DNA from: an uncultured Acidobacteriaceae bacterium
GTDB lineage: Bacteria > Acidobacteriota > Terriglobia > Terriglobales > Acidobacteriaceae
NCBI GenBank assembly: GCA_963735915.1
Contig: CAVTMX010000030.1
Coordinates: 187,501-251,500, forward strand
Direction of reading: 5' to 3'
DNA length: 64,000 nt
The notes beneath the pieces are model-generated. The model worked only from the letters and a program-made list of their open reading frames with translations. It had not been told where the DNA came from and did not search any database. The translations under genes were made by a program, and so were the position numbers. This document shows positions 17,225 to 41,900 of the stretch, piece after piece. How positions within the stretch are numbered: position 1 is the stretch's first letter; each line of letters opens with the position of its first letter.

Positions 17225-17424
17225 CGCCAGGACATGAAATGTTCGTTAGACAGCCTGGGCGGCACCGGAGTTGCAAATCCTTTGTAACATGTTGCAGGTA
17301 AGTTTTCAGGAATCAGCGGACATCGTGGCCCGCTACTCAGGAGGGAGTCGCAAACGCAGTGTAGATGGTCGTGGACGATTAACTTCAGGTTAACCGGTAA
17401 GTTTCCCCGACCACTATCCACTTC

Positions 17425-19322: not shown

Positions 19323-20593
19323 TCACAATCCCCCAGTCCACCAGCATTGCATTTCTGCATTTCTCCTCGACACCTTCTCCACTTCTCCAAACACTCTCAG
19401 CAGATTTCCGCCAAGAATCTTATCAAGATCGGCCGCCGAATAGCCGCGCTGGGAGAGCGCTTCCGTGATCTTCGGCAGATCGGCCGCCGAATCCAGCCCC
19501 TGCGGCGAGCAATCGATGCCATCGAAATCCGATCCCAGCCCCACATGATCCACGCCCGCAACCTTCACCATGTGGTCGATGTGATCGATCAGATCGCTGA
19601 ACGGCGGCCGCGGCAGCTTCGGCGCCAGCTTCGCCTTGGCCTCCGCCAACTGCTTCACGACCTCCGGCGTCTGCGGCTTGATGAACAGCGCCTGCACCGC
19701 CTCAGTAATCCGGATCGTGCTGCGCCGCCAGCTGCTTCGCCGTGTCCAGATACTTCTGCGAAACAAACGCGCAATAGTAATTCACCTGCGCCACGCCGTT
19801 CTTCGCGGCCAGCGCCTTCAGCATGTCGTCGGTCATATTGCGCGGCGCGTTGGTCAGCGCGCGCGACGACGAATGCGACGCAATCACCGGCGCCTTGCTC
19901 AACTCCAGCGCCTGGTAGAACGTCGAGTCGGCAACATGCGAGATGTCGACCATCATCCCCATCCGGTTCATCTCCGTCACCACTTCGCGGCCAAACGGGG
20001 TGAGCCCGCCGTGATGCTGAATGTTCTGGTCGGTCATGTCGCCGCTGGAGTCGCCAATGTCGTTGGTGTTCGACCACGTCAGCGTCATGTAGCGCACGCC
20101 CAGCCGGTAATAGTCGCGCAGGATGCGGATGTCGCCCTCGATCGCGTGCCCGCCCTCAACGCCCAGCAGCGCCGCCAGCTTGTGCTCGCGATGCGCAACG
20201 AGGATGTCGTGCGTGCCGAACGCCATCATCATCTTGTCGGGATGCCGCCGCGCCTGCTCGTACACCGAGTCGATCATGTCGAGCGCGCGCTTGGCTTCGT
20301 TGCCCTTGATTCGCCTTGGGCTCGACCCAGATGGAGAAGAACTCCGCGCCCAGATTGCCGGCCTTGATTTTGTTGAAGTCGAGATAGCCCGTGCCGGCGT
20401 CCTGCGCCAGATCGAAGTTCTCATCGACGAATCGCCCCGGCGTGTCGGCATGCGTGTCGATGATGATGGCGGAATTGTGGATCGCACGCCAGCCGTTATC
20501 GTTGTGCGCGCTCGCCGACGGCTTTCCCGTTTGCGCGAAGGCAACGCTCACACAGAGTAGGAGTAAGGGTGTAAGCCGAAATGAACTTGGCAT
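19323..20593 (-). pseudogene. Membrane dipeptidase (peptidase M19, renal dipeptidase family); 2 frameshifts as assembled
   Basis: Signal peptide; IIIDTHADTP, LLGVEGGHAIEGD, MMVDISHVAD, VIASHSSSRAL, HVGLGSDFDGI, spread over ORFs 20156-20593, 19702-20544 and 19323-19766. Confidence 0.85.
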
Positions 20594-26946: not shown

Positions 26947-29900
26947 GTGAACGGAGCCGGCGACCAATCCCCAATGCGAACCGTTCCCACCTTGGTTCGC
27001 GCCGAAGCTTATTGGCTGTTTGTCCTGCTCTCGACCTCCTGCCTCCTCTCCATTGCTCTCCTGCTCCCGCCGTGGGCGTGGGCACAAGACGGTTCGACTT
27101 CTTTGCAGGGGACGATTGAAGACGCGAGCGGCGCGCGGATTCCCGCGGCGGTTGTAGTGGTGACCGATCCGCTGCGAGGGCTCCGCTTCCAGGACAAGAC
27201 CGACGCACAGGGAAATTTTACCTTCGGCATGCTGCCGCCGGGACGCTACGATGTGAGCGCCTCCGCTCCAGGCATGGCCACTCGGACCAGCCATGGAGTC
27301 GATCTGCTGGTCGGCGGCACATCGTCTGTCCGATTGCGGCTCCCGCCGGTAGCGGTCGTGCAGACAGTCACGGTTACGGCAACTCCGACGCCGATAGAAA
27401 CTCAAACCGGTGACATCTCCAGTGTGGTGACCCAGCAGGCGATCGAAGGGCTGCCTTTGAACGGGCGCCGCTTTACCGATCTGGCGTTGCTCTCCCCGGA
27501 CGTGGTCCAGGACCCGCGCGGGCTCACTTCCGAATTCCAACGGCGACTTGTCGGTGGGAGGCGTACGCGGCTTTCAGAACAGCTTCCTGGTCGACGGGAC
27601 GGATGACAACAATTCGTTCTTCGCGCAGGCGCGCGGCCGTTATCGCGCGCCGTACCAGTTCAGCAACGAGGTGATCCAGGAGTTTCGCGTCTCGAAGAAC
27701 TCCTATAGCGCCGAACTGGGCCGTTCAGGCGGGGCGGTGTTCAACGTGGTGACCAAGTCCGGCACCAACCACTGGCACGGCAGTGGTTTCTATTTTTTGC
27801 GCGACCGCCAGTTTGACGCGCAGCAGCCGTATGCCGACAGCAAGCCTGACGATCGCCAGCAGCAGTTCGGCGGAACGATCGGCGGGCCGCTACGCAAAGA
27901 TCGCGTCTTCTTTTATGCCGGCTTCGATCAGCATCTGCTGACCGTGCCGTCGATCGTCCAGTTCGGCAACGGAGCCAGTACGGTGGTGCCCCAGCCCACC
28001 GATTACGACTACACCGACAGGCCGATGGTCTTCGCCGCGGCGCAGAAGCTGAACAGCATGGGCGGAGTCTATCCGACGACCATGCAGGGCAATGCCGGTT
28101 TCGCCAAGGTCGACTTCAACCTGATCGTCCAAGCAACTGGCATTCGTGCGGGTCAGCACGTCAATGCTGACGGGCACCAACAACGTCTTCTTCGACCCGT
28201 CCAGCCCGATTACCGGCTATGCGGCCAGCGCGAACGGTACCGAGGATGTCCAGACCGAGAGCGTCGCGGCGGCCCTGGTCAGCTCCTGGAGCCCGAACCT
28301 CGCCACCAATCTGCGGCTCGCAGTTCTCGCGCGATCTGCAGCAGTCGATCACCAACTCCGATGAGCCGTGGACCAAGATCTACGACCTGGTGGACGGCTT
28401 CGGCGGGTCCAGCATTCTGCCGCGCGAGACCAGCGAGCAGCAAACTGCACGTGGCCGATACCGTCAGCTACGAACATGGCCGCATGCACTGGAAGTTCGG
28501 CGGCGACTTCATCCAGGCGTGGATCTACAACTACTATCCGTATCTGTTCGGCGGCGAATATTACTTCGACAACGTGAAGGTGAACCCATGGACCTACGCT
28601 CCGGAGCATATGGCGAGCCGCTGACGCCGCTGCGCGCTTACGCGCACGGTGTCCCGCGCTACTACATGCAGGACTTTGGCAACGCGGTGTCGCATCCCGA
28701 CTCGCGCTTCTACTGCGGCTTTCGTGCAGAACACTTATCGCATGACGCGAGAACTTCACGCTGAACGCTGGGGCTGCGCTACGACCTGCAAACTTTCGAG
28801 CCCGGCCCGCTGATAAGCAATCCGCTGTACGCTCCCGTCGGGCAAGGTGCCGACTGACCTGAACAACTTTTCGCCGCGCTTGGGATTCGCCTACTCCCTG
28901 GGCGAGCAAGCATCCCGCTGGTGATCCGCGGCGGCGGCGGCATTGTTCTACATGCCCATCCCCGCGATGTACGCGTCGCAGGTGGCCAACCGACAACGGA
29001 ATCGACAATCGTCGCAGCTGTTTCTGGACATGATGAAGCCGGCGCAGGCGGCGCTGTTCCCGTCCTATCCCAAACGCGCTGGTGAATTGCCCCTCGGGAA
29101 CTACTGGTATGCAGGCCGCCTGCATCGGTGGCCAGCTTATCTGACGACCAACGATTTCGGCGTTCGCGCCCAACTTCCAGACGCCGTATACCGAGCAGGC
29201 CAACATCGACCGTGCAGCGGGAGTTTGGGCAACGCATCGTGGCCAGCGCCAGCTACGCCTACGTGCACGGCGTGCACGAGATCCGTTCGCTCGACGTGAA
29301 CCTTCCCAAGCCGACAATCATCGACTATCCCGTCTACAACGACACCGGCTCGGTGTTGCTCGGCATGTACTCCGGTGGCGTCGTTCTGCAACCTGGCAGA
29401 CCACGCCGTCCGTCACTTGTCCTTATCCGCCGTGCATCAATCCGCGTGCAGCGGCCGATCCGCAGCTGGGCACCATCAATTCCTTTCAGAGCGAGCCAGC
29501 AGCATGTACAGCGGCATGACCGTTTCCGTGAAGCGCCAGCTAAGCCACGGCATGTACTTCCAGGTCGGCTACACATTGGCGAAAGCGATGGATGACGGCC
29601 CGGACGCGCTAGTGGTCGGGCGTCCCGGCAATGTTCAGAACTCGTATGCAACCGCTGCGGAATGGGGACCCAGCGTCAACGATCAGCGAAATCGATTTGT
29701 CGCGGCATGCGGTGGCCGAGCCCAAGTTTCACTTCGAAACGGAGCGCTGAACCTAGCCAACAACTGGAAACTGTCCAGCGTCGTCACCTCCGGTTCGGGA
29801 CGGCCGATCAACGCAACAATTGCCGGGCGATCCCAACGGCGACGGCAACATCTACAACGATCGCCTGCCCGGGTACACCCGAAATGCATTCATCGGCCCC

Positions 29901-30186
29901 GATTACTTCAGCACCGACTTGCGTCTCACGCGCAGCATCCGCTGCGGCGAGCATGTCGTCTGGAACCTGATCGCCGAGTCCTTCAAGTATTCAATCGCAC
30001 CAACGCGCGGGTGCAGATCAGCGATGACGGCTACTACAACTCCGCCGGACAGTTCGTCGCCTACTCGACCACGGTCAAGGGCAAGCTCTATCCCGGGAGA
30101 ATTCCTGATGAACTCGCAGTTTCTTGACGCCCACCAATGCGTATGCACCGCGGCAGGTGCAATTCTCGGTAAGGCTTAGTTTTTAA
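26947..30186 (+). pseudogene. TonB-dependent receptor / CarboxypepD_reg-type outer-membrane protein, shattered by well over ten frameshifts
   Basis: SLQGTIEDASGARIPAAVVVVTD...GNFTFGMLPPGRYDV | GDLSVGGVRGFQNSFLVDGTDDNNSFF...VFNVVTKSGTNHWHGSGFYFLRD | ...KLHVADTVSYEHGRMHWKFGGDF | ...LRYDLQTFEPGP | LNNFSPRLGFAYSLG | ...SMYSGMTVSVKRQLSHGMYFQVGYTLAKAMDD | ...FSTDLRLTRSI | ...NAYAPRQVQFSVRLSF with stop 30184-30186. Confidence 0.75.
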
Positions 30187-30259
30187 GGGAGATAGTCGAA
30201 GCCCCAACTCTACTTTAGTGCCTGTAGGAGTAACCACAGGTGGTGACTCAAGTCTTCGC

Positions 30260-30289
30260 TTGACTTCCCCTGGTAACACTAGGGATAAC
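30260..30289 (+). promoter_or_regulatory. Weak candidate promoter of rpsU (TTGACT-N18-GATAAC)
   Basis: TTGACT at 30260-30265 and GATAAC at 30284-30289. Confidence 0.2.
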
Positions 30290-30330
30290 TACTAGTGTCC
30301 ATATGGGACGAGTCTGGGGGTGTTTCCTGT

Positions 30331-30528
30331 TTGGCGGAAGTTCGCATTCAAGAGGGCGAGTCGTTAGAGAACGCCCTGCGTCGCTTCAAGCGCAAAGTCC
30401 AGCAAGAGGACATCATTAAGGAAGTGAAGCGTCACTCCTTCTACCTCAAGCCGGGCGAAAAGAAGCGCGTGAAAGAAGCGCTGGCGCGCAAGCGCAGCCG
30501 CAAGAAGGCTCGTAAAGAGCAGGACTAA
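30331..30528 (+). CDS. rpsU: 30S ribosomal protein S21
   Basis: (L)AEVRIQEGESLENALRRFKRKVQQEDIIKEVKRHSFYLKPGEKKRVKEALARKRSRKK. TTG start at 30331. Confidence 0.9.
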   Translation: MAEVRIQEGESLENALRRFKRKVQQEDIIKEVKRHSFYLKPGEKKRVKEALARKRSRKKARKEQD

Positions 30529-30537
30529 TTCACAGCT

Positions 30538-30570
30538 GGGCCGCCGTTACAAGGGCGGCCCTTACTTTTT
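30538..30570 (+). terminator. Rho-independent terminator of rpsU
   Basis: GGGCCGCC-gttacaag-GGCGGCCC followed by TTACTTTTT, 10 nt after the stop. Confidence 0.7.
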
Positions 30571-30785
30571 CCATTCCTGAAGTGTGGGGTGTTCATGCAG
30601 GTCGTACCGCAGTCTTCAGTAGTAGACCATGCGCATTCAAGCATGGTGGGCCGAACCCAGGGGTGTGTACCTGAGCACTGGAATTTGTGATTGCCGTAGG
30701 AACGCTCAGTCCGGTTCTCGCTGTCAGTCGCAAGTTGACCCCGTCTATGTGCTTGGGAGTCACGGGCTGAAGGGAGCAACTCTCC

Positions 30786-31095
30786 ATGGAATTCCAGGAC
30801 AAGGTACTAAAGTGTATTGACTGCGGCGCTGACTTCGTCTTCACCGCCGGAGAACAACTGTTCTTCCACGACAAGCAGTTCAAGAACGAACCCAAACGCT
30901 GCAAAGCCTGCAAGGCAAAACGCGCTTCCACCTTGGGGCCTACCACTCCGGGAGACTATCCCAAGGTGGAAACCCGCACGAATTGTTCCGGCGTGTGGCA
31001 AGGAGACCACCGTCCCCTTCAAACCCACGCAAGGCCGGCCGGTCTTCTGCCGGGAGTGTTTCCAGCAGCGGCGAACCAGTGCTGCTACTGCCTGA
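30786..31095 (+). pseudogene. CxxC-x17-CxxC zinc-ribbon protein (two repeats); 1 frameshift (~30975) as assembled
   Basis: MEFQDKVLKCIDCGADFVFTAGEQLFFHDKQFKNEPKRCKACK... | ...NCS|ACGKETTVPFKPTQGRPVFCRECFQQRR. Confidence 0.6.
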
Positions 31096-31138
31096 CCAGC
31101 CGCATTTCAGTCATACTATAGCGCCCCCGCTCATAATC

Positions 31139-32128
31139 ATGGACGCAGAGGGACGTTGTGTCTCTGTCCATCTTTCTGACATCACCGCATCATGGTCTGA
31201 AAAGCAGATCTCGCTGTTGCAGAGAGGATTCTGCGCACTGACGCTGCTCATTGGAGTCGCAATTCCAATAGCCGCTGCTTCGAGCGCGCTGCGGATTTCC
31301 TGGCTGCCGCACACCATCGCCGTGGGGTCGCCCTGCCTCGTTCCGCGTGAGATGTCGACCAGCCCGGTTGCCAGCATGCGCGGCGAGTGGATGGGGCACG
31401 AGATCACGTTCTTCCCTTCCAGCGAGCGCCACGCCTGGTACGGACTGGCGGGCGTCGATGTTGAGGCCAAGCCCGGCAGCTACAAGCTCTCACTGGAAGC
31501 TACGCTGGCCGATGGCAGGGTCGTTCGCGATGAGCAGACCATCGTCGTGCAGAGCGGCCATTACAAAACCGAAAAGCTGACGGTGCCGGAGAAGTTCGTG
31601 CAGCCCGAGCCAGAGACGCTGCGTCGCATCGAGGCCGAGAAGAAGATCAAGGACGCGGCGTTTTCTCACGTAATTGCTCAGCCGGAATGGTCGGGCAATT
31701 TCGTTCCGCCGATTGACACGACTGTGTCGGAGGGTTTCGGCACGCGGCGGACCTTCAACGGCAAACTCGCCAGCGTTCATCGTGGTCTGGATTATCACGC
31801 CAAGCCCGGCTCACCGGTAACGGCTGCTAACTCGGGCGAAGTGGTGCTGGCGCGCGAACTGTTTTACGAAGGCAACTGCGTCATCGTCGATCACGGACAG
31901 CAGTTCTACACGCTGTACATGCATCTTTCGCATCTTGAAGTCAGCGAGGGCGAGAAAGTAGAAAAAGGGCAAGAGATTGGATTGTCGGGTGCGACCGGCC
32001 GCGCCACGGGACCTCATCTTCATACCGCGGTGCGCTGGCAGGGAGCGTATCTCGATCCCGCACAGTTATGGCTTCTGCCTTTGCCGCAGCTGCCGTCAAC
32101 CGGGCAGTCGCAGACCAACAGCAAATAG
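31139..32128 (+). CDS. M23 family metallopeptidase (LytM-type)
   Basis: HRGLDYHAKPGSPVTAANSGEVV, VIVDHGQQFYTLYMHLS, GATGRATGPHLH. Confidence 0.85.
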   Translation: MDAEGRCVSVHLSDITASWSEKQISLLQRGFCALTLLIGVAIPIAAASSALRISWLPHTIAVGSPCLVPREMSTSPVASMRGEWMGHEITFFPSSERHAWYGLAGVDVEAKPGSYKLSLEATLADGRVVRDEQTIVVQSGHYKTEKLTVPEKFVQPEPETLRRIEAEKKIKDAAFSHVIAQPEWSGNFVPPIDTTVSEGFGTRRTFNGKLASVHRGLDYHAKPGSPVTAANSGEVVLARELFYEGNCVIVDHGQQFYTLYMHLSHLEVSEGEKVEKGQEIGLSGATGRATGPHLHTAVRWQGAYLDPAQLWLLPLPQLPSTGQSQTNSK

Positions 32129-32227
32129 GAAACATCCAGGCGCCAAAAGCAAACGCGATGATCATTCAGAAATGACCACCGCGTAATCCATAGCTAACGT
32201 CTCGTTAAAGCCTTCTGTAGGTCGAAG

Positions 32228-32689
32228 CTACTCGGCTCTTTTAACCGATGCCTGCCGCTCAGTGCGGGCGCCCTCGGCGATTGCGGCTTTCCTCACGCCG
32301 TTCCTCTGCCCAAGCATCTTCTGATCCTGATGTGTAATCAGCAGCGCTTCCAGCTGCCGCAGCAGTTCCGGAGTATTGACTGGCTTCACCAGCAGAGATT
32401 GCGCTCCCTTGCTCTTCCATTCGTTGCCGAGCGACGGGTAGGCGGTGAGCAGAGCCGTTGCTGGATCGTACGGCTGCTGGCGGGCGGTGCGGATGACGTC
32501 ATAGCCCGACGTTTCGTTTTCCATCCGCATGTCGGTAATCACCATCTCGTAGACGCCATTCTTCAGCTTATTCTGCGCCTCTTTGGCGGAGGCCGCGGTG
32601 TCGACCTCGAAGCCATTCATTTCCAGAATTGCGCGCAGGGTGAGAAGAATTGCCAACTCGTCATCAACTAGCAGAATGCGACGTTTCAT
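32228..32689 (-). CDS. Stand-alone response-regulator receiver domain (CheY-like)
   Basis: MKRRILLVDDE...MVITDMRM...LLTAY...LVKP. No output domain. Confidence 0.85.
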   Translation of the reverse strand: MKRRILLVDDELAILLTLRAILEMNGFEVDTAASAKEAQNKLKNGVYEMVITDMRMENETSGYDVIRTARQQPYDPATALLTAYPSLGNEWKSKGAQSLLVKPVNTPELLRQLEALLITHQDQKMLGQRNGVRKAAIAEGARTERQASVKRAE

Positions 32690-32865
32690 GGGGAACTCCA
32701 TACCAGACGCTACCGCTAACGGCGGCTGATTAAGATGCGGCGATCGCTCTTACGGTTGCTGAACAGGTATCAATCGACTGATTTTGCCATCCGTTGACTG
32801 TGATCGTACACCCGTTTCGACGCCGCACGCAAAGCATCACCGATGACGCTCAGTATAATTAGCCT

Positions 32866-34225
32866 GTGGCGACCTACCATGTGGAGAACTTCGGCTGCCG
32901 TGCGACGCAGGCCGATGGCGCAGCAATCGAGCGGCAACTGCTCGAGCGCGGCCTGGAACGCGCGGGCGATGCCAGCGCGGCCGAAGTCGTCGTCCTGAAT
33001 ACCTGCACGGTCACCGCTGCTGCCGATCAGGACGCGCGCTCCGCCATTCGCCGCATTCATCGCGAGAATCCTGGGGCGAGGATTCTGGTGACTGGCTGCT
33101 ATGCGCAGCGCGCTCCCGAGGAATTGTCGGCGATTCCCGGCGTCAGCCTGGTTATCGGCAATTCCCACAAGCACGTCAACTAGTCGCGATTGATCTGCCC
33201 GCAACTGCCCGGTTTTGTCCCGTTGGCGCAAATTGGCGCGACGGCCGATCCTAGGGTCAGTGTCATCGTCGGTGACATCTTCGCGCATACCGAATTAATG
33301 GCGGCGCCGGTATTCGACGGATCGTCGGAGAAGACGCGACCGAATCTGAAAGTGCAGGACGGCTGCAATAATCGCTGCTCGTTCTGCATCATCCCGTACG
33401 TGCGGGGCAAGAGCCGCTCACTGAAGCTGGAAGAAGTCGTGCGCGAAGTCGATGCGCTGGTCGCCAGCGGATATCGCGAGATTGTTCTTTCGGGCATCAA
33501 TCTCGGACGCTGGGGACGCGAGCTGACGCCGCAGACCAATTTCGCAACCATGCTGCGCGCGATTCTGGAGCGAACCACCATCGAAAAGATTCGTATCAGC
33601 TCGGTCGAGCCGATGGACTGGACCAACGAGGTGGTTGAACTGGTCGCGTCGTCGCCGCGGATCTGCAAGCACGCGCATGTGCCGATGCAGTCAGGCAGCG
33701 ACAACATCCTGCGCAAGATGCATCGCAAGTATCGGCCGTGGCATTATGCCGATCGCATCGAGCGAATTCGGCAGGCGATGCCGGATGCGGCAATCGGCGC
33801 GGATGTCATGGTCGGTTTTCCTGGCGAGACTGATGACGACTTCGAACAGACACGCGCGTTGATCGAACGGCTGCCGTTTACCTATCTGCACGTCTTCACC
33901 TATTCGTCGCGGCCGGGAACGCCATCAGCCGCAATGCCGGATCAGGTGCCGGTGCAGCTCGCTCGGGAACGCAATCGCGTGCTGCGGGAGTTGGCTGCGC
34001 AAAAGAAGCGCGGGTTCATGGAATCGTTCGTTGGGCGCGAAGTTGAAGCGATCACGCTGACACACTTCGACGGCGAGTACACGGAAGCGCTGACGGACAA
34101 CTACCTGAAGTTGCAAGCTCAGCGGCAAGCGCGAACCCAACCGGTGGGGAATTTATATAACGCGGCGCCTACTCAATTCCGAGGGGGTCTCGCCCGCCTG
34201 TGCCTCACGGCAAGATCACTCATGA
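32866..34225 (+). pseudogene. mtaB: tRNA threonylcarbamoyladenosine methylthiotransferase MtaB (radical SAM); 1-2 frameshifts; 3' end uncertain
   Basis: HVENFGCRATQADG...VVLNTCTVT (UPF0004), CNNRCSFCIIPYVRG (radical SAM), HVPMQSGSD, VGFPGETDDDF, ...TDNYLKL|KLSGKREPNRW. ORFs 32866-33183 and 33190-34287. Confidence 0.8.
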
Positions 34226-35060
34226 GCTTTGAAACCGATACTCCGATTTCAGATGTATCGACATCGTTTGGAACGAGGAACCCATAGGTTGCATCTCCGC
34301 TGGTGACAGTGCACATAATTCCTTGTGATTGTTGCTCCATATCAACATCACTGGCGCGGGGGTCGGATGATTTAACAGCATTTTCTATAAGCACCTTTCG
34401 CAACCGTATATCTAATCTCCGATCCAATTCTTCATTAAGGTTGCGCAGGGCTGCCGTCGTGGTCTGCGCGATTGCCGTCGCGGTCTCCGGTGGCCGGTTC
34501 AGGTTTCGGACTAGAGCTAACACCTCTTCCACCATGTCGCGGATGTCGCGTCCCGTCCCGGCGGCGGCGCTAGAGCCTTCCGCATCGGGCAAGCTGTTTA
34601 GCTTCGACTCGAGTTTAGGCCACCATACCTCAAAGGCTTCATCTATATGCGATTCAGCGAGAGCTGCCTCTCCAAGTGCGCTATTCAGGGTTTTTATGAG
34701 TTTGAGGACCTCACCTTTTGCTGCCCGTGTCGCCTGGAATTGGGCCAGCGGTTGCTCGACATCCGCAGGCTCTAAGCCGATTAGAAATGGACAAACGTAG
34801 GTGTTCTCGATTGTCTTGGAAAGGGCCCCGGCTTCGAACAGCAACCAATCCGAGTGGAGATTATCCGGTGTCAAACAAATGATCCCGCCTTTGCAGTCCT
34901 TCAGCTTGGTTGCGATCTCCGTTCCCCACCGCGCGCCTTTGTCGATATCCGCTGCTGAAAGCCACGGCTTTAGAGCATTGATGATTTTAGGTAACCAATC
35001 CCGTAATGCTTCGGCAGCGGCTCCGCTGCGTTTGCCAGACCAACTGATGAACACGTCCAT
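34173..35060 (-). CDS. TIR-domain protein with unassigned ~150-aa C-terminal region
   Basis: MDVFISWSGKRSGAAAEALRDWLPKIINALKPWLSAADIDKGARWGTEIATKLKDCKGGIICLTPDNLHSDWLLFEAGALSK shows TIR_2 hallmarks, including the conserved Glu. The segment is visibly AT-richer than its flanks. Alternative start at 35093. Confidence 0.8.
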   Translation of the reverse strand: MDVFISWSGKRSGAAAEALRDWLPKIINALKPWLSAADIDKGARWGTEIATKLKDCKGGIICLTPDNLHSDWLLFEAGALSKTIENTYVCPFLIGLEPADVEQPLAQFQATRAAKGEVLKLIKTLNSALGEAALAESHIDEAFEVWWPKLESKLNSLPDAEGSSAAAGTGRDIRDMVEEVLALVRNLNRPPETATAIAQTTTAALRNLNEELDRRLDIRLRKVLIENAVKSSDPRASDVDMEQQSQGIMCTVTSGDATYGFLVPNDVDTSEIGVSVSKLMSDLAVRHRRARPPRN

Positions 35061-35120
35061 GTCGCGGATTGTTCCACAACCGCAAGCTGTCAAGCCAGCA
35101 AAAACTCAGTGCGAATCCCA

Positions 35121-35129
35121 TGCTATACT
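35121..35129 (+). promoter_or_regulatory. Candidate extended -10 element (TGcTATACT) upstream of infC
   Basis: tgctatact lies 32 nt before the ATC start. No good -35. Confidence 0.2.
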
Positions 35130-35160
35130 TCCCACTACTGCAGCCACAGCGGAGGACTGT

Positions 35161-35835
35161 ATCGATAAACGTTTTATCCGCACCAATGAGCGCATTCGTG
35201 TCCGCGAAATTCGCGTCATCGACGATGAAGGCAACCAGCTTGGCATCATGCCGCCCTTCGAAGCGCTCAAAATTGCCCGGGAAAAAAGCCTCGACCTGGT
35301 AGAAGTTTCACCCACCGCGCAGCCGCCGGTTTGCCGCATCATGGACTACGGCAAATATCTGTACCAGCAGGAAAAGCGCGAGCGCGAAGCCAAGAAGCAC
35401 CAGCACCAGATCACGGTCAAGGAAGTGAAGTTCCGCATCAACGTGGACGATCACGACTACGAGACCAAGAAGAACCACGTGCTGCGCTTCCTCGACGAAG
35501 GCGACAAGGTGAAGGCGACCATCTTCTTCCGCGGACGCGAAATGACGCGCCAGAGGCTGGGCCGCGAGATTCTGGACCGGCTGATCAAGGACCTGGGCGA
35601 CAAGGCCATGGTGGAGTTCCGTCCGCGGCAGGAAGGCAACACGCTGCACTTGATCCTGGCGCCGCCGAAGGTGCAAGCCCCCGGCCAAGCCGCACGCGCC
35701 CAAGCCGGACAAGCAAGCCGCGCCGCCGGCGCCGCGCCCGCCCGCGCCGACACAGCAGCTCGCAGTGAAGCGACTACGACTGGCCCAATCTGCGCGTTCT
35801 ATGTTGTAATAGATAAATCGTTATGCCAAAGCTGA
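35161..35835 (+). CDS. infC: Translation initiation factor IF-3, with a non-AUG (ATC) start; C-terminal tail frame uncertain
   Basis: GGAGGA-ctgt-[33 protein letters not shown]...[25 protein letters not shown]...[18 protein letters not shown]...FFRGREM. An alternative tail frame gives [14 protein letters not shown]... with a stop at about 35808. Confidence 0.85.
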
Positions 35836-36016
35836 AGACTCACAGCGGAGCGGCCAAGCGCTTCAAGAAGACAGGTACGGGCAAGATCAAGCGCGGTCAC
35901 GCGTTCAAGCGCCACATCCTGACTTCCAAGGGCACCAAGCGCAAGCGCCAGCTCGATACCGACGTGATGGTCGACAAGGCCGACTGCCCAAGATCAAGCG
36001 CATGATCCCCTACTAG
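35823..36016 (+). pseudogene. rpmI: 50S ribosomal protein L35; 1-nt deletion near the 3' end as assembled
   Basis: [44 protein letters not shown]...VDKADCP|KIKRMIPY. The frame is restored by one extra C at 35987-35990. Confidence 0.85.
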
Positions 36017-36165
36017 CCGCATGGTGCGGCAACCGGCGGCATCGATTCGATCCAGAGTCGATGACGGTCAACAGCGTGTGAAGAGGTATATCGGCCCCTC
36101 CTGCCGCGGCGGGCGCGGTCACCTTCTTACCTCCAGCCGCTTAACGCAGATGAAAAGGAGCAGCC

Positions 36166-36519
36166 ATGCCTCGCGTAAAACGTGGTACCAAGCGCCGTGC
36201 GCGCCGCAAAAAGATTCTTGAGCGCGCAAGCGGCTATTACCTGACAAAATCCAAACTCTACCGCTCGGCAAAAGAGTCGGTGGAGCGCGGCCTGAAGTTC
36301 GCCTACAGCGGCCGCAAGCAGAAGAAGCGCCAGTTCCGCTCCATCTGGATCGTGCGCATCGGCGCCGCCGCCAAGCTGAATGGATCAGCTACGCAGTTCA
36401 TCAGCGGACTGAAGAAGGCCGGCATCGAGCTGGATCGCAAGATCCTGGCCGACCTGGCGGTGAACGATCCAGCGGGGTTTGCGACACTGTGCAAGCAGGC
36501 GCAAAGCGCGGCAGCCTGA
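36166..36519 (+). CDS. rplT: 50S ribosomal protein L20
   Basis: [65 protein letters not shown]...[18 protein letters not shown]. Confidence 0.9.
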
Positions 36520-36563
36520 CACTCGCTCCAGCTCAAAGCACCAGGCGCGTTCGCCATCAGCTC

Positions 36564-38222
36564 ATGCGACTTCCTCTGAGACCCGCATTGTTCGCGGCCC
36601 TGCTCTTTTTGCAGGCGCTGTGCCTCAGCGCGCAGACTGGTCCGAAATTTGAAGTTGTGGTCCCCGCGACGGCGCACGCGCAGCCCATCACCGGCCGCGT
36701 CTACGTCATCCTCAGTCGCAAGCAGAGCGACGACCTGCGGGAACGCATCGGCTCCTGGCAGCAGGAGACTCCCTTCTTCGGCAGCGACGTCAGCGCTCTT
36801 GCGCCCGGCGTCCCCGGCATCATCGACGGCGACACGCCCGGCTACCCGCTGCACAGCCTGAAAGACATTCCCGCCGGCGACTACTACGTGCAGGCGCTGG
36901 TCAACGTTTACACGGAGTTCCACCGCGCCGACGGCCACGTCATCTGGGCGCACATGGACCAGTGGGAGGGCCAGCAGTTCAACCAGCTCGCCCGGCAACC
37001 TGTACAGCGAGGTGCAGAAGCTGCACCTCGATCCGGCAACGGGCTACGACGTCAAGCTGGATGCGAGCCAAGATGATCCCGCCGGTCGAGCTGCCGCCGA
37101 CACGCAGTGGGTGAAGCACATCAAGTTCGAAAGCAAGCTGCTGACAAGGTTCTGGGGCCATCCGATCTACCTCGGCGCAACCGTGCTGCTGCCGAAGGAC
37201 TACGACGAGCACCCCAACGTGCGCTATCCGGTCATCTACGAGCAGGACCACTTCGGGCTGGCCCGCCGCTGTTCATGCAGATGGAGCCCCCGAAGGATGG
37301 CTCGAAGTGGGGCCCGCTTCGCTACCAGGCGTTTCAGGCGTGGAGCGGCGACAATTCCCGCGCATGATCGGCGTGACGTTTCAGCACCCGACGCCCTACT
37401 TCGACGACTCCTACGCCGTGAACTCCGCCAACAACGGCCCCTATGGCGACGCGATCATGCAGGAACTGATCCCGTATCTGGAGCAGCACTTCCGCATCAT
37501 TCGCGAGCCCTGGGCGCGCGTGCTGATCGGCGGCTCGACCGGCGGCTGGGAGTCGCTGGCGCTCCAGCTCTATCATCCGGAATTTTTCGGCGGCACCTGG
37601 ACCGGCTTCCCCGACCCAATCGATTTCCGCCACGACCAACTGGTCGAACATCTACGAGGACGCGAACGCCTTCGACGTGCCGGGATACGAGTGGGTGCAG
37701 CGCGAGCGCCCACTGATGCGCACCGCCGAGGGACAGGTGGTCGAGACCGATGCGGCAGATGAGCCAACTGGAAGACGTGCTCGGATCCATGGCCGCTCGG
37801 CGCAGCAACTCGAGACCTGGGAAGCGGTCTATGGTCCGGTCGGCGCGGACGGCTATCCCAAGCCGCTGTGGGACAAGCGCACCGGCGCGATCGATCGCAC
37901 GGTAGCAAACTACATGCGCGACCACGGGTACGACCTGCGGTATTACCTGCAACAGAATTGGGCGCGGATCGGCCCGCAGATCATGGACAAGATATTCATC
38001 TGGGTCGGCGACATGGACAATTTTTACCTGAATCTCGCCGTGTACGACATGGAGGACTTCCTCAAATCGCACCCCGAGGCGCATGCGAAGTTCGAGTACG
38101 GCCGCCCGGAGAAAGGCCACGGCTGGTTCCCGTGGGAACCGAAGGACTTCATCAAGATGATGGCCGACCACATGGCCGCGCACGCGCCGGCTGGCGCGGA
38201 CACGAAGAGCTGGCATTATTAG
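36564..38222 (+). pseudogene. Secreted esterase-family (enterochelin-esterase-like alpha/beta) protein; at least 5 frameshifts as assembled
   Basis: Signal peptide MRLPLRPALFAALLFLQALCLSAQ; ...IMQELIPYLEQHFRIIREPWARVLIGGSTGGWESLALQLYHPEFFGG...; tail ...FIWVGDMDNFYLNLAVYDMEDFL...GHGWFPWEP. Pieces in ORFs 36489-37076, 37012-37716, 37307-37762 and 37677-38222. Confidence 0.6.
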
Positions 38223-38224
38223 CG

Positions 38225-39361
38225 ATGTACACCGTTCCTAAACTCGAGGACTATTCGCCTGACGCGCTCGACCGCGCGGTTGCCGAACTGTTGCGTGCAC
38301 TCGACGAAGAAGCCGCCACGCTGAAAGACGAATCCGACTGGAAGACCTTCCGAGATCGTTGGCTCGCGCGCAAGAACGGCGTACTTACGCAGGTCAACGA
38401 CACCTGGCTCAAGGCTGCGCCGGGCCCCGCGAAGCGCGATGTCGGCCAGCGCGTGAACGCGCTCAAGGCGCACGTCGAATCCGCTGTGGATGAGGCGCTA
38501 GCGAAACTCTTGCCTCGGCCGGGCGTTAATATCTCAAAGGTTGTTGGATATGCGGCCCTGAAAAGAGCTGCGGAGCCCGATCTCGACATCACCCTCCCCG
38601 GCATCCACCGCCCCATCGGCGTCAAGCACCCCATCCTCCGCGCGATGGACGACATCGTCGCCGTCTTCAAGGCCATGGGCTACTCCATCGGCGAAGGTCC
38701 CGAGGTCGAGACCGACTACTACAACTTCGAGTCGCTGAATTTTCCGCCCAACCACCCGGCGCGCGACACGCAGGACACGCTGTTCATCGCCGGCCAGGAC
38801 GAGAAGCCCGCGCGCGACCGCCTGCTGCTGCGCACGCACACGTCGCCGGTGCAGATTCGCACCATGGAGCGGCAGCCGCCGCCGGTGCGCATCGTCATCC
38901 CCGGCAAGGTGCACCGCAACGATCCGCTCGACGCGACGCACTCGCCGGTCTTCCACCAGGTCGAAGGGCTGGCGGTCGACACCAACATCACCTTTTGCGA
39001 CCTGAAGGGCACGCTGGACCACGCCATGAAGGCGCTGTTCGGCTCGTCGGTGAAGACGCGCTTCTACCCATCGTTCTTCCCTTTCACCGAGCCGAGCGCC
39101 GACATGCAGGTGAGCTGCATCTTCTGCGGCGGCAAAGGCTGCCGCAAATGCAAATTCAGCGGCTGGATCGAGCTGCTGGGCTGCGGCATGGTCGACCCGA
39201 ACGTCTTCGAGTTCGTGAAGCACAACGGCTACGACTCGTCGAAGATCAGCGGCTTCGCCTTCGGCATGGGTGTGGAGCGTATCGCGATGCTGAAGTACGA
39301 GGTGGAAGAGATCCAGTTGTTCTACGAGGGCGACGTGCGCTTCCTGGAGCAGTTCGCGTGA
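38225..39361 (+). CDS. pheS: Phenylalanine--tRNA ligase alpha subunit
   Basis: FPPNHPARDTQDTLF, HTSPVQIR, FHQVEGL, GFAFGMGVERIAML. Met 38225 lies inside ORF 37868-39361. Confidence 0.95.
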   Translation: MYTVPKLEDYSPDALDRAVAELLRALDEEAATLKDESDWKTFRDRWLARKNGVLTQVNDTWLKAAPGPAKRDVGQRVNALKAHVESAVDEALAKLLPRPGVNISKVVGYAALKRAAEPDLDITLPGIHRPIGVKHPILRAMDDIVAVFKAMGYSIGEGPEVETDYYNFESLNFPPNHPARDTQDTLFIAGQDEKPARDRLLLRTHTSPVQIRTMERQPPPVRIVIPGKVHRNDPLDATHSPVFHQVEGLAVDTNITFCDLKGTLDHAMKALFGSSVKTRFYPSFFPFTEPSADMQVSCIFCGGKGCRKCKFSGWIELLGCGMVDPNVFEFVKHNGYDSSKISGFAFGMGVERIAMLKYEVEEIQLFYEGDVRFLEQFA

Positions 39362-39409
39362 TGGAGCAGCGTTCAAGCTGGAATGGACGAGCGGGCCGCT
39401 ATGAAAAGA

Positions 39410-39577
39410 GCGCCGTAGGCGCGGAAGAGCTCAGCCCAGCGCTTCAGCGCTGGGTAGCGTTCCATGATGCGGTGAGTGCCGTAGGCACGGCACAGCCCGG
39501 ATTCTCTGCCGTCCCTACGGGATCCGGAGCAACTTCTGACGCCTACCCAGCGCTCAAGCGCTGGGCTAAGCTCTTCC
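39410..39577. repeat. Composite hairpin repeat between pheS and pheT: 37-nt inverted repeats flanking CCGTAGG-type hairpins
   Basis: IR-L 39423-39459 ggaagagctcagcccagcgcttcagcgctgggtagcg versus the reverse complement of IR-R 39540-39577: 2 mismatches plus 1 indel. Inner hairpins are gcgccgtaggcgc, gtgccgtaggcac and ccgtccctacgg. Confidence 0.8.
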
Positions 39578-39686
39578 GTCCCGGGAGCGGGACTCTGCCA
39601 TTCGCGCTTCTGGCCTCCTGCCATTCAGCAAGATTTCATGAGAGCCAGATTGAGCTTCCGTTTGTAAACGCGAACAGGGAGTTGGC

Positions 39687-41900
39687 GTGAGAATTCTTCC
39701 CGCATGGTTGCGTGAGTTTGTTGATATCGCGGCTGACGACCGTCAGCTCGCCGAGGCGCTGACTTCAGCCGGCATCGCGGTGGAGTCCGTCCAGCAAGAA
39801 CGGGGCCAGACGGTTTACGAGATGGACCTCACGACCAACCGCGTGGACGCGATGAACCATTACGGCGTCGCGCGGGAAGCGTCGGCCATCTACGACGTTG
39901 AGCTGAAGAAGGTCGAGCCGAAGCTGCCTGCCAACAATAGGGGTCCTTCGACTCCGGGGCGAGGCGCGCCTGCGCTCAGGATGACACCCGATAAGAGGGC
40001 GTCGCCAATCGTGGCCGCCCGCAGCGCGAGTGATGCCTTCCCGATCCTCATCGAGGACCCGCAAGGCTGCGCGCGATATACCGCCCGCATTGTTCGCAAT
40101 GTAAAGATCGGCGCTTCACCGGAACGCGTCGTCAAGCGGCTGGAACTGCTCGGCTCGCGCTCCATCAACAACGGCGCAGATGCGACCAACTACGCGATTA
40201 ACGAACTCGGCCATCCCACGCATGCGTTCGATCTTGATTTACTCGAAGGCGGCACGATCATCGTGCGGCGGGCCCGCGAAGGCGAGGTTCTCAAGACGCT
40301 CGACGGCGTTGACCGCAAGCTCACGACAGACGACCTCGTCATCGCCGATGCTAGGAAGCCGGTGGCGCTCGCCGGCGTGATGGGCGGCTTCGACACCATG
40401 ATCACCGAGCGCACGCAGAACGTGCTCATCGAGTCGGCGTGGTTCGAGCGGTGGACGGTGCGCGGCATGGCCAAGCGTCACGGGATGCACACGGACGCCT
40501 CGCATCGCTTCGAGCGCGGGGCTGACTACGGCATCACCCCGCTGGCGTGCGACCGCGTGGCCGAACTGATTCTGCAGAGCGCCGGCGGCGAACGGCATGG
40601 CGAGCGCATCGATACAATCGGCCGTGAGTTGCAGCGCGCACCCATCACATTGCGCAGCTCCGAGGTGCGGCGCAATCTTGGGACCGACATCGCAGCGGAG
40701 GAGATCGAGCGCATTCTGCGCAGATTAGGATTCGCGACGACGAGCGCCGCCAAATCGGCAGCGTCAACCGAGACCTGGAACGTTCAGGCTCCTACCTGGC
40801 GCCTTGACGTCGAGCGCGAGATCGACCTGCTGGAAGAAATCGCGCGCATCTACGGCTACAACAAATTTCCCAACACCCTGCCGGCATTCTCGGGCGCGGT
40901 CGTCGAGCTGCCGGACGAGGCGAAGAACGCCAGAGTTCGCCAGACCATGCTCGCGCTCGGTTACAACGAGGCTATCTCGATCACGTTCATCTCGGAGCAG
41001 GACGCGCGCACCTTCGCCTCCCACCCTTTCGCCAACACCGGGGGAAAGGACGGGGCACCCACATCTGATGGTGCGCCCGCATCCGATGGGGCACCCCCGT
41101 CCGAGCCGCTGGATCTGGCCAATCCCCTGAGCGAAGAAGCGCGTTGCATGCGCACCTCACTTTTGCCCGGGCTCTTGGACCTGGTTGGTTACAACTTGAA
41201 TCGCGGGACGAACAATGTCCGGCTGTTCGAAGCCGGCGAGGTCTTCGAGAAAATCGGTCATCGGCACGATGAGCGCCGGCATCTGGGATTGGTCGCCACC
41301 GGAGAGGCGATTGCCAAAGACGTGCACCGCAGCCAGGCGGAGCCCTACACCTTCTTTCACATGAAGGGCGACCTAGAAGAATTGCTCGCGGCATTTCAGC
41401 ATCAGTCGCTGCACTTCGACGCTATTGTCCCGGCCTATCTTCATCCCGGCCGGGCGACGCGCGCCATCATGGATGGTGAGACTGTCGCTGTGTTCGGACA
41501 ATTGAATCCCGAGCAGGCAGCCGCGCGCAAACTGCGCCAGGACGTTTACCTGGCCGAGGTGAGGCTCGACCGTGTCTATCGGCACGGCCTGCGCGAGCCG
41601 CGCTATCGTCGCATCTCGAAGTTCCCTGCCGTCGGGCGCGACTTCTCGTTTGTCTTCGACGATGGGGTGACGTGGGAGAAGACCAACTCTGCGGTGCAAG
41701 AGCTTCGCATCGCCGAACTCGTCAACCTACAGCCGGCCGAGATCTATCGCGGTGAGAAGGTCGGCGCCGGCAAGTACTCGCTTCTCGTCCACGCCGAGTT
41801 CCAGTCCCAGGAACGCACGCTGCGCGACGACGAAGTGGCGCAATGGTCAGCGCAGATCATCCGCCGGCTAGAATCGTTGGGCGGAACCCTGCGCGCGTGA
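39687..41900 (+). CDS. pheT: Phenylalanine--tRNA ligase beta subunit (form lacking the EMAP-type tRNA-binding domain)
   Basis: MRILPAWLREFV...DLTTNRVDAMNHYGVAREA...CARYTARIV...SPERVVKRLELLGSRSINN...; FDX-ACB tail ...FSFVFDDGVTWE...SLLVHAEFQSQERTLRD. Confidence 0.95.
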   Translation: MRILPAWLREFVDIAADDRQLAEALTSAGIAVESVQQERGQTVYEMDLTTNRVDAMNHYGVAREASAIYDVELKKVEPKLPANNRGPSTPGRGAPALRMTPDKRASPIVAARSASDAFPILIEDPQGCARYTARIVRNVKIGASPERVVKRLELLGSRSINNGADATNYAINELGHPTHAFDLDLLEGGTIIVRRAREGEVLKTLDGVDRKLTTDDLVIADARKPVALAGVMGGFDTMITERTQNVLIESAWFERWTVRGMAKRHGMHTDASHRFERGADYGITPLACDRVAELILQSAGGERHGERIDTIGRELQRAPITLRSSEVRRNLGTDIAAEEIERILRRLGFATTSAAKSAASTETWNVQAPTWRLDVEREIDLLEEIARIYGYNKFPNTLPAFSGAVVELPDEAKNARVRQTMLALGYNEAISITFISEQDARTFASHPFANTGGKDGAPTSDGAPASDGAPPSEPLDLANPLSEEARCMRTSLLPGLLDLVGYNLNRGTNNVRLFEAGEVFEKIGHRHDERRHLGLVATGEAIAKDVHRSQAEPYTFFHMKGDLEELLAAFQHQSLHFDAIVPAYLHPGRATRAIMDGETVAVFGQLNPEQAAARKLRQDVYLAEVRLDRVYRHGLREPRYRRISKFPAVGRDFSFVFDDGVTWEKTNSAVQELRIAELVNLQPAEIYRGEKVGAGKYSLLVHAEFQSQERTLRDDEVAQWSAQIIRRLESLGGTLRA
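39958..39986 (-). repeat. GTCATCCTGAGCG box embedded in frame within pheT
   Basis: The reverse complement of 39973-39985 equals gtcatcctgagcg (identical to 26715-26727). In pheT it is translated as ...GRGAPALRMTPDK... Confidence 0.5.
41049..41102 (+). repeat. Three imperfect 18-bp tandem repeats inside pheT (DGAPTS DGAPAS DGAPPS)
   Basis: gacggggcacccacatct gatggtgcgcccgcatcc gatggggcacccccgtcc. Confidence 0.8.

Follow-up and report, generated by a model that had tools for sequence, protein, structure and literature searches.

A stand-alone TIR-domain gene with a portable, hypervariable C-terminal module at the mtaB-infC junction of an Acidobacteriaceae genome: a candidate one-gene abortive-infection module

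We analysed a stretch of 64,000 nucleotides (hereafter the window) from an uncultured Acidobacteriaceae bacterium (assembly GCA_963735915.1, contig CAVTMX010000030.1, positions 187,501 to 251,500 of the forward strand) and focused on a single TIR-domain gene located between mtaB and infC. The gene is most likely an immunity gene, since its nearest tested counterpart is the TIR subunit of an anti-phage system of three genes carried by a phage, from which it differs in standing alone; it is, however, one of thousands of similar genes. From its sequence and predicted structure, we propose that it encodes a self-contained sensor-effector TIR enzyme that would cleave nicotinamide adenine dinucleotide (NAD+), and that it is exchanged horizontally as a one-gene module acting by abortive infection; we give this reading a probability of about 0.5. 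A role in defence is more likely than the specific mode of action, i.e. self-contained depletion of NAD+. Immune signalling in bacteria, in plants and in animals shares an enzymatic core, the TIR domain. To our knowledge, the way in which small bacterial TIR proteins sense an infection is understood in a few systems only.

Results

The window encodes a complete TIR-domain protein of foreign composition

The gene and its parts are located in the window as follows.

34173 to 35060, minus strand: coding sequence of the TIR-domain protein, 295 amino acids, with ATG at 35060 and the TAG stop at 34173-34175
34491 to 35060, minus strand: conserved N-terminal module, residues 1-190, delimited by alignment, homology and Foldseek
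34833 to 34835, minus strand: GAA codon of the invariant Glu76 (LLFEAGA motif, alphaC helix), putatively catalytic
34191 to 34481, minus strand: hypervariable module, residues ~194-290, with a predicted alpha-beta3-alpha fold

A preliminary description, made from the sequence of the window alone, had already assigned a TIR domain to the minus-strand open reading frame (ORF) at 34173-35060, between mtaB and infC. Both the assignment and the position were confirmed. The Pfam TIR_2 profile (PF13676) matched residues 3-111 with 38.0 bits (cut-off 28; E=2.6e-9; profile positions 1-106 of 122), and the two neighbours were identified by their own Pfam domains. The 295-residue product opens with MDVFISWSGK in the list of minus-strand ORFs, and an alignment of 83 homologous sequences begins at the methionine of MDVFISWSG in all of them. 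This common start, together with a -10 element that lies within the longer extension from TTG at 35093, places the start of the gene at the ATG at 35060. We found no second copy of the gene in the window, the Rfam scan of 33000-37000 returned nothing, and the exact protein has neither a gene record nor a name in public sources.

The segment had also been described as AT-rich compared to its flanks, and both the GC profile and the GC content at third codon positions (GC3) bear this out. The gene is the lowest-GC stretch of 888 nt in the window (0.536 vs a mean of 0.616, standard deviation 0.024; 0.2nd percentile). Its GC3 is 0.56, while mtaB, infC, rplT, pheS and a response regulator gene range from 0.72 to 0.86. 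The same holds in all three syntenic genomes, with a GC3 of 0.54-0.57 in the TIR gene vs 0.74-0.82 in the flanks, and family genes lie below the GC content of their host at the phage, plasmid and other acidobacterial loci that we examined. The composition is that of foreign DNA.

A perfect 13-nt direct repeat, CCATGTCGCGGAT, is present in the window at 34532-34544 and 35057-35069. One copy covers the start codon and the 5' end of the TIR gene, and the other lies within the gene at Met175 (…DIRDMVEE…). The repeat is probably due to chance, because the internal copy has no upstream -10 element and is not kept in the orthologues.

The N-terminal module is a TIR domain with the glutamate at the catalytic position

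The N-terminal module consists of a TIR fold (approximately residues 1-140) and a helical extension with an invariant WWP (146-148). Within residues 4-185, 49 alignment columns are invariant across the 83 sequences, among them F4, S6-W7-S8-G9, F75-E76-G78-A79 and W146-W147-P148. The AlphaFold2 model of the full-length protein has a mean predicted local distance difference test (pLDDT) score of 85. Its best Foldseek matches were SPARTA TIR-APAZ (E=7e-5), plant TIRs and BtpA, in each case over the TIR part of about 160 residues only, and the search with the whole protein against the PDB and BFVD yielded TIR matches exclusively.

The glutamate of LLFEAGA had been expected at the catalytic position, and this expectation held. 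E76 is invariant in the 83 homologues, and in a profile search against PDB sequences it aligned, with marginal E values (0.05-0.6), to the Glu of WCLDEL in the plant TIR structures 7xoz and 3jrn. In plant TIRs, the Glu of WCLDEL is the catalytic residue. In the AlphaFold2 model E76 lies within the predicted helix 71-83, directly after strand 58-63. By the conserved-Glu criterion the protein is a catalytic-type TIR, with putative NAD+ cleavage.

The C-terminal module is hypervariable and portable

The C-terminal module is predicted to consist of a long helix, a three-stranded antiparallel sheet and a final helix. It is modelled with a pLDDT of 94-98 within the full-length protein, and with a pLDDT of 88.9 and a pTM of 0.73 when folded alone. 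After the conserved '...LEEILALVRNQNR' the sequences of the family appear unrelated, yet they align to a single pattern. Identity per column averages 17% in it, and the only nearly invariant residue is the Pro of 'VPxD'. Seven full-length alleles from the same chromosomal junction (see below) share on average 26% identity (18-37%) in the C-terminal part vs 73% (60-82%) in the N-terminal part.

The Pfam scan of 41 C-termini from the family gave no match, and the Foldseek search with the isolated module found no PDB fold below E=0.013. Weak fold hits to PtuA, HPF and dsRBD-like proteins, with TM-scores of ~0.3-0.45, lacked significance and were dismissed. With a mean net charge of -1.3 the modules are slightly acidic, which disfavours a dsRBD-like role in nucleic-acid binding despite the resemblance to the dsRBD topology. 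In the preliminary description, everything from about residue 150 on had been left unassigned as a helical stretch followed by a 'beta-rich tail'. There is indeed no recognised match in Pfam or among PDB folds, but the region is not private to this gene, since it is found across the family and is portable. Its limits and shape also had to be revised: the variable module begins at ~194, the conserved N-terminal module includes residues ~115-190 as well, and the predicted fold is alpha-beta3-alpha.

Portability was seen in an exhaustive profile search with the module over 1.84 billion representative sequences. It returned 45 proteins, mostly truncated members of the family. Two acidobacterial proteins, P0129 and P0142, carry the same module without a TIR domain, behind an N-terminal domain with two predicted transmembrane (TM) helices. 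Their C-termini are 45-53% identical to those of TIR family members (blastp), and P0142 shares the module with P0095 at E=4e-23. These fusions to a two-helix (2-TM) domain show the C-terminal module to be portable, with alternative N-terminal modules in front of it. The gene for P0142 (L100:6001-6672) is followed by the gene for an unknown 243-residue protein and then by a DUF3800 gene. A common upstream partner of the TIR and 2-TM variants was considered and rejected, as the small ORFs upstream of them are unrelated.

In a minority of the family the alpha-beta3-alpha module is replaced by a Fis-type helix-turn-helix (HTH) domain (HTH_8, PF02954). This subgroup comprises P0037, P0038, P0056, P0084, P0092 and P0104 (e.g. 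L007:8001-8786). P0037, the HTH member whose context was examined, is encoded upstream of xdhC.

The family is large and is carried by phages and plasmids

A search of a collection of 5.8 billion proteins found at least 2000 homologues of ~270-300 amino acids. Among the matches listed, all homologues with a named taxon came from metagenome-assembled genomes (MAGs) of Acidobacteriota (Candidatus Angelobacter, Sulfotelmatobacter, Acidobacteriia). Public annotation names them 'TIR domain-containing protein' or 'hypothetical protein' at most. At 80 metagenomic loci we found neither AC1-type TM genes (see the next section) nor a recurrent operon partner, with neighbour statistics based on crude ORF calling, and a recurrent partner gene was likewise missing at seven acidobacterial loci. 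The two AC1 membrane partners were absent from all acidobacterial loci that we examined. Fifteen metagenomic loci lie upstream of xdhC and seven adjoin a hydantoinase-like gene.

Copies of the N-terminal module, 42-47% identical over 160-190 residues, were detected by tblastn in phage and plasmid records, namely in Escherichia phage P2_AC1, the lambdoid phage mEp390, the Acidithiobacillus plasmid pGT2 and a 4.7-kb Serratia plasmid. The genes of mEp390 (mEp390_047), pGT2 and the Serratia plasmid resemble the window gene in having the same 190-residue module and in being solitary, with a transcription unit of their own; mEp390_047 lies between the Q and holin genes, with annotated terminators on either side. 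They differ from it in their C-terminal regions, which consist of helices and bear no relation to the alpha-beta3-alpha module. Viral contigs of IMG/VR carry the family as well. Some of these copies are solitary amid morphogenesis genes, and in the viral contig L099 small 2-TM ORFs lie directly upstream of the TIR gene.

The 14-kb plasmid pGT2 (L094, NZ_CP080537.1) has three annotated TIR-domain genes (277, 385 and 148 amino acids) within ~4 kb. Two small ORFs upstream of its family member match neither the 1TM nor the 2TM model of AC1.

The closest tested relative is the TIR subunit of the P2_AC1 system

In P2_AC1, the TIR gene is preceded by two small membrane-protein genes, and the products of these three genes are recognised by the PADLOC models 2TM-TIR, 1TM-TIR and TIR-TM. 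The DefenseFinder name of the system is Rst_2TM_1TM_TIR. The TIR-TM model (PDLC03016) matched the window protein with 245 bits (E=3.5e-73), over profile positions 1-206 of 293 only, while the AC1 TIR protein covers positions 1-286 of 293 with 393 bits. Over residues 1-159 to 1-187 the window protein is 42-46% identical to the proteins of P2_AC1, mEp390 and pGT2, and the AC1 TIR subunit is its closest tested relative. Thoeris ThsB and AbTir, which had been named as examples of characterised TIR NADases, give way to this subunit of the P2-AC1 2TM/1TM/TIR system. Rousset et al. 2022 (PMC9122126) cloned the three AC1 genes together and observed protection against lambda, LF82_P8 and P2. In the literature on the system names we found no mechanistic study beyond that of Rousset 2022.

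The name TIR-TM raised the question whether the window protein had lost a TM helix or had its C-terminus altered by a frameshift. Both ideas were rejected, as none of 120 homologues has a TM segment; the name stands for the TIR protein that accompanies the TM proteins of AC1.

The window protein and the AC1 TIR protein share 45.6% identity over residues 1-159 of the former (tblastn), the Glu at the catalytic position and the WWP extension. Both genes are GC-poor relative to their host and lie in a variable hotspot. There are, however, clear differences. The AC1 system was validated only as a three-gene unit, whereas the window gene stands without 1TM and 2TM genes; when the AC1 TM proteins were searched against the 64-kb window by tblastn, nothing better than E=1.3 was found. 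Furthermore, the C-terminal third of the AC1 model is unlike the window protein, and the carrier is a coliphage there and an Acidobacteriota chromosome here. Lacking the 1TM and 2TM genes and the AC1 C-terminal third, the window gene should not be filed as an AC1 system.

With Thoeris ThsB, AbTir/BtpA and SPARTA, the window protein has in common the TIR fold with a Glu at the catalytic position. Induced oligomerisation is the shared activation principle of these TIR systems and would presumably apply to the window protein as well. The similarity is confined to the generic TIR core, and the window protein has no ThsA, pAgo, APAZ or N-terminal coiled-coil virulence architecture. For Thoeris, no ThsA is present at the locus, PADLOC reported no Thoeris model, and the best NCBIfam model of that system, ThcB4, scored 14.9 bits against a cut-off of 220. 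The statement that no ThsA, SIR2 or other partner is adjacent therefore stands, the neighbours being mtaB and infC. For CBASS and Pycsar, PF10137 remained below threshold (E=0.14) and no cyclase gene is adjacent; the PADLOC model SAVED_TIR gave 17.5 bits (E=4e-4), and 295 amino acids leave no room for a SAVED domain. For SPARTA, no Ago gene is adjacent, the structural match covers ~160 TIR columns of a target of ~415 amino acids, and the alpha-beta3-alpha fold of the C-terminal module differs from APAZ. We regard the window protein as a known type of defence TIR in solo form, joined to a portable module that is new to description.

The AC1 relationship bears on the main alternative to a self-contained enzyme, a signal-producing TIR, Thoeris-like or as proposed for AC1. 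Such a protein would make an NAD+-derived messenger for an effector encoded elsewhere, e.g. a membrane protein. The AC1 TIR gene sits in an operon with those of two TM proteins, and Rousset et al. proposed that it makes a nucleotide messenger for them (PMC9122126). The arrangement in L099 would suit this explanation too, and the acidobacterial 2-TM proteins with the same C-terminal module could act as partners in trans. However, no recurrent partner gene was seen at more than 90 loci examined, the window has no AC1-type TM homologue, and a lone mobile cassette would rarely reach a genome with the matching effector. Moreover, TIR and 2-TM domains swap at the same architectural position, which suggests alternative effectors and not partners. 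We consider a signal producer unlikely.

The TIR gene occupies a recombining cassette at the mtaB-infC junction

We surveyed the junction by scanning one genome per GTDB species with MtaB. This gave 80 junctions, nearly all from Korobacteraceae, Acidobacteriaceae or Terriglobales MAGs. Together with the window, 36 of the 81 junctions were empty, 37 held other cargo, 3 (including the window) held a TIR gene and 5 could not be scored. An empty site had been predicted for relatives and was found in 36 of the 76 scorable junctions, against 3 of 76 with the TIR gene. The spacer between mtaB and infC is 32-163 nt at empty junctions, and the other inserts measure 213-2663 nt. Across the junctions MtaB is 77-99% and InfC mostly 88-96% identical. 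The neighbourhood had been regarded as normally compact; in this clade the junction is instead a hotspot with many alternative inserts.

The genes for P0003 and P0006 (57-64% protein identity) occupy the same site between infC and mtaB and overlap the 3' end of mtaB convergently, as in the window, and five further metagenomic contigs hold the TIR gene at mtaB|infC. The carriers are scattered on the mtaB tree, each beside non-carriers, and MtaB is 86-87% identical among the three genome-resolved carriers.

Comparison with the closest genome, L012, defined the exchanged segment.

34115 to 35116, no strand: variable cassette of 1002 bp without homology to L012 (blastn)

The limits of the cassette are given by the loss of homology to L012 after 34114 and its return at 35117; in L012 this interval is filled by 739 nt of unrelated sequence. 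The cassette holds the TIR gene only, with no room for a second gene. We found no target-site duplication and no terminal inverted repeats at 34115/35116, and the cassette contains no recombinase. To its left, window positions 28000-34114 align with L012:833-6916. Identity is 78-90% at 28.0-30.7 kb, rises to 100% without gaps over 31586-33085 and is 97-99% from there to the junction (98.3% in the final 840 nt of the conserved part of mtaB); on the infC side it is 88%. This pattern points to recent recombination over a tract of which one end coincides with the hotspot. Given the identity tract and the lack of transposon hallmarks, the cassette was probably exchanged by homologous recombination in the flanks, and it would have spread among related genomes through these conserved flanks and not by transposition.

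Downstream of infC, L012 (8282-12912, compared to window 35741-41000) has no similarity to rpmI-rplT-pheST within 4.6 kb. L005 has an rve-family gene between infC and rpmI and a Y1 transposase gene between rplT and pheS. From these two arrangements, the infC-rpmI-rplT-pheST cluster appears prone to insertion in this clade.

The other cargo of the junction consists of small membrane proteins, secreted and PEP-CTERM proteins, and repeat elements. L021, L028 and L051 encode 2-TM proteins of 118-129 amino acids with a Cys-rich tail, L020 a 217-residue coiled-coil protein with one TM segment and L015 a secreted protein of 323 amino acids. In a deeper clade (L079-L091) the junction holds genes for one or two PEP-CTERM proteins. 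Repeat elements with recurring translations (…LYQGT.FSRA…, …EQQVPPRGLKSLVGMT…) are found among L013-L091. None of this cargo matched PADLOC, and PEP-CTERM was the sole Pfam match above threshold. With no PADLOC match among the other cargo, we regard the junction as generically flexible and not as a shown defence island.

The nature of this cargo is one of the points in favour of a function outside anti-phage defence. The protein could be an NAD-consuming toxin or regulator in dormancy, stress, addiction or inter-bacterial competition, and the HTH minority may be DNA-bound regulators. The replacement of the module by the DNA-binding HTH_8 domain in some members agrees with this, as does the recurrence of the family at few fixed loci (15 at xdhC, 7 at the hydantoinase-like gene). 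On the other hand, the distribution is patchy, the composition is foreign, and members of the family are carried by phages and small plasmids. The family also shows homology to a validated defence component, and we found no signal peptide or secretion-system context. A non-defensive role seems quite improbable to us.

The adjacent mtaB gene reads as disrupted

On the left side, the cassette borders on the following parts of mtaB.

32866 to 34110, plus strand: mtaB body (UPF0004 and Radical_SAM, Pfam), as assembled broken by a TAG at 33181-33183
34111 to 34225, plus strand: non-canonical mtaB 3' tail in the +1 frame, KLSGKREPNRWGIYITRRLLNSEGVSPACASRQDHS followed by a stop (three-frame translation, comparison with 80 MtaB tails)

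Compared to the intact copy in L012, the window has an extra CG, CGC and G and three substitutions within 25 nt (33174-33197), which create the in-frame TAG. At 34110-34114, exactly where homology breaks off, there is one more extra base, and the last ~37 mtaB codons are out of frame as a result. The tail overlaps the 3' end of the TIR gene convergently (34173-34225). The preliminary description had read mtaB through KLSGKREPNRW into this overlap, and both are real, but only in the +1 frame relative to the mtaB body. It had also suggested that the insertion replaced the last ~25 codons of mtaB. This is so in the present allele (~20 codons) and, altogether, in three of the eight TIR-bearing junctions: the canonical tail, '...NQWVRAIIEAVHSDALVGS...' in the consensus of the clade, is absent from the window, L024 and L123, which have the most similar TIR C-termini, and is kept at the other five. 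Tail replacement is therefore a trait of this group of alleles and is not general to the insertion. The damage to mtaB may represent a real pseudogene, possibly as a scar of cassette exchange, or a local error of long-read assembly.

Other genes of the window also appear broken in frame. A zinc-ribbon protein at 30786-31121 is split over two frames, and the coding region of an esterase-like secreted protein between rplT and pheS (36489-38222) is divided among four ORFs, which overlap and are in different frames. Further candidate split genes came from a crude survey, e.g. at 293-2438, 15159-17245, 19323-20547 and 48561-49612.

It is highly improbable that the junction itself arose in assembly, through the chimeric joining of two strains plus indel errors, in which case the position of the gene or the truncation of mtaB would have no biological basis. 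In favour of such an artefact, the L012 homology switches at 34114, precisely at the frame-breaking extra base, the cluster of small insertions creates the TAG in mtaB, several other window genes appear split and the source is apparently a long-read MAG. Against it, the same gene, orientation, junction and convergent overlap recur in seven other independent assemblies (L024, L047, L101, L102, L103, L105 and L123), and the TIR ORF is unbroken over its full length, with end-to-end alignment to its homologues.

Predicted expression signals on both sides of the junction

Comparison of loci revealed candidate signals for the TIR gene and for its right neighbour, infC, which was identified by IF3_N and IF3_C (Pfam).

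35068 to 35078, minus strand: extended -10 element TGTGGAACAAT of a putative promoter, ending 7 nt before the ATG of the TIR gene
35121 to 35129, plus strand: extended -10 element TGCTATACT of infC, putative
35151 to 35155, plus strand: Shine-Dalgarno sequence GGAGG of infC, putative
35161 to 35163, plus strand: ATC start codon of infC, putative

At seven acidobacterial loci, which represent four unrelated contexts, the motif TGTGnnAnAAT ends 7-10 nt ahead of the ATG. In the metagenomic set, 45 of 68 loci have an ATAAT-type -10 at that position, and in 18 of the 45 it takes the strict form. Its closeness to the start codon suggests a leaderless or near-leaderless mRNA made from the gene's own promoter. 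A consensus scan for sigma-70 promoters and intrinsic terminators gave no hits, and the -10 element came from the comparison of loci.

The infC signals lie immediately to the right of the cassette. The gene infC is known for its non-AUG start. The signal block is conserved in every junction locus inspected (including L012-L091), independent of the cargo upstream, and its elements presumably serve in the transcription and translation of infC. An extended -10 needs no -35 element, and this may explain why arbitrary cargo is tolerated upstream of infC.

Discussion

The preliminary description of the gene as a TIR insertion fared well in its computational predictions, all of which came true, while its interpretation was supported in part, with four corrections. 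A TIR assignment and an insertion are what specialists would expect; the swap between TIR and 2-TM domains, the hypervariable domain and the self-contained, putatively leaderless cassette are more notable.

According to the reading we prefer, the C-terminal module would be a sensor or regulator that holds the TIR domain inactive until it meets a phage-derived trigger, most likely a protein. The trigger would promote TIR-TIR assembly. Known TIR enzymes require such assembly to form the active site. Glu76-dependent cleavage would then deplete NAD+ and abort the infection, and TIR and 2-TM domains would be alternative effectors on the same module. In its wider form, which we regard as tentative, this would be a modular family of one-gene abortive-infection proteins, in which a hypervariable reader binds a phage protein and triggers the fused TIR NADase or 2-TM domain.

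Several points weigh against the self-contained enzyme. The sole tested relative is a TIR protein that was cloned with two TM proteins and for which the production of a signal was proposed (PMC9122126). The hypervariability of the C-terminal module could reflect relaxed constraint on an oligomerisation domain and not an arms race. A 'defence island' at the junction had to be dropped, since the other cargo is not recognisably defensive. The -10 element of the window (AACAAT) is weaker than the family consensus CATAAT/GATAAT, and the frame errors in the assembly lower the trust in fine detail.

If the protein is inactive or a mere signal producer, it would be another TIR accessory gene. The locus also documents a hotspot with recombinational turnover that rewrites the 3' end of a tRNA-modification gene. 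In this very large and mostly acidobacterial family, the validated AC1 system is reduced to the TIR protein alone, and the TIR domain is coupled to a compact, hypervariable module, predicted to fold with confidence, which is also found on a membrane effector. If this module is a sensor, the protein would provide a minimal and experimentally tractable model of trigger-induced TIR activation, as well as a view into the defence repertoire of a dominant, poorly studied soil phylum. Should the modular-family reading be true, the protein would be an immune receptor of the TIR type made of a single chain, much smaller than the sensors of the NLR/Avs type, that is abundant in soil Acidobacteriota and enters fixed chromosomal hotspots by recombination in their flanks.

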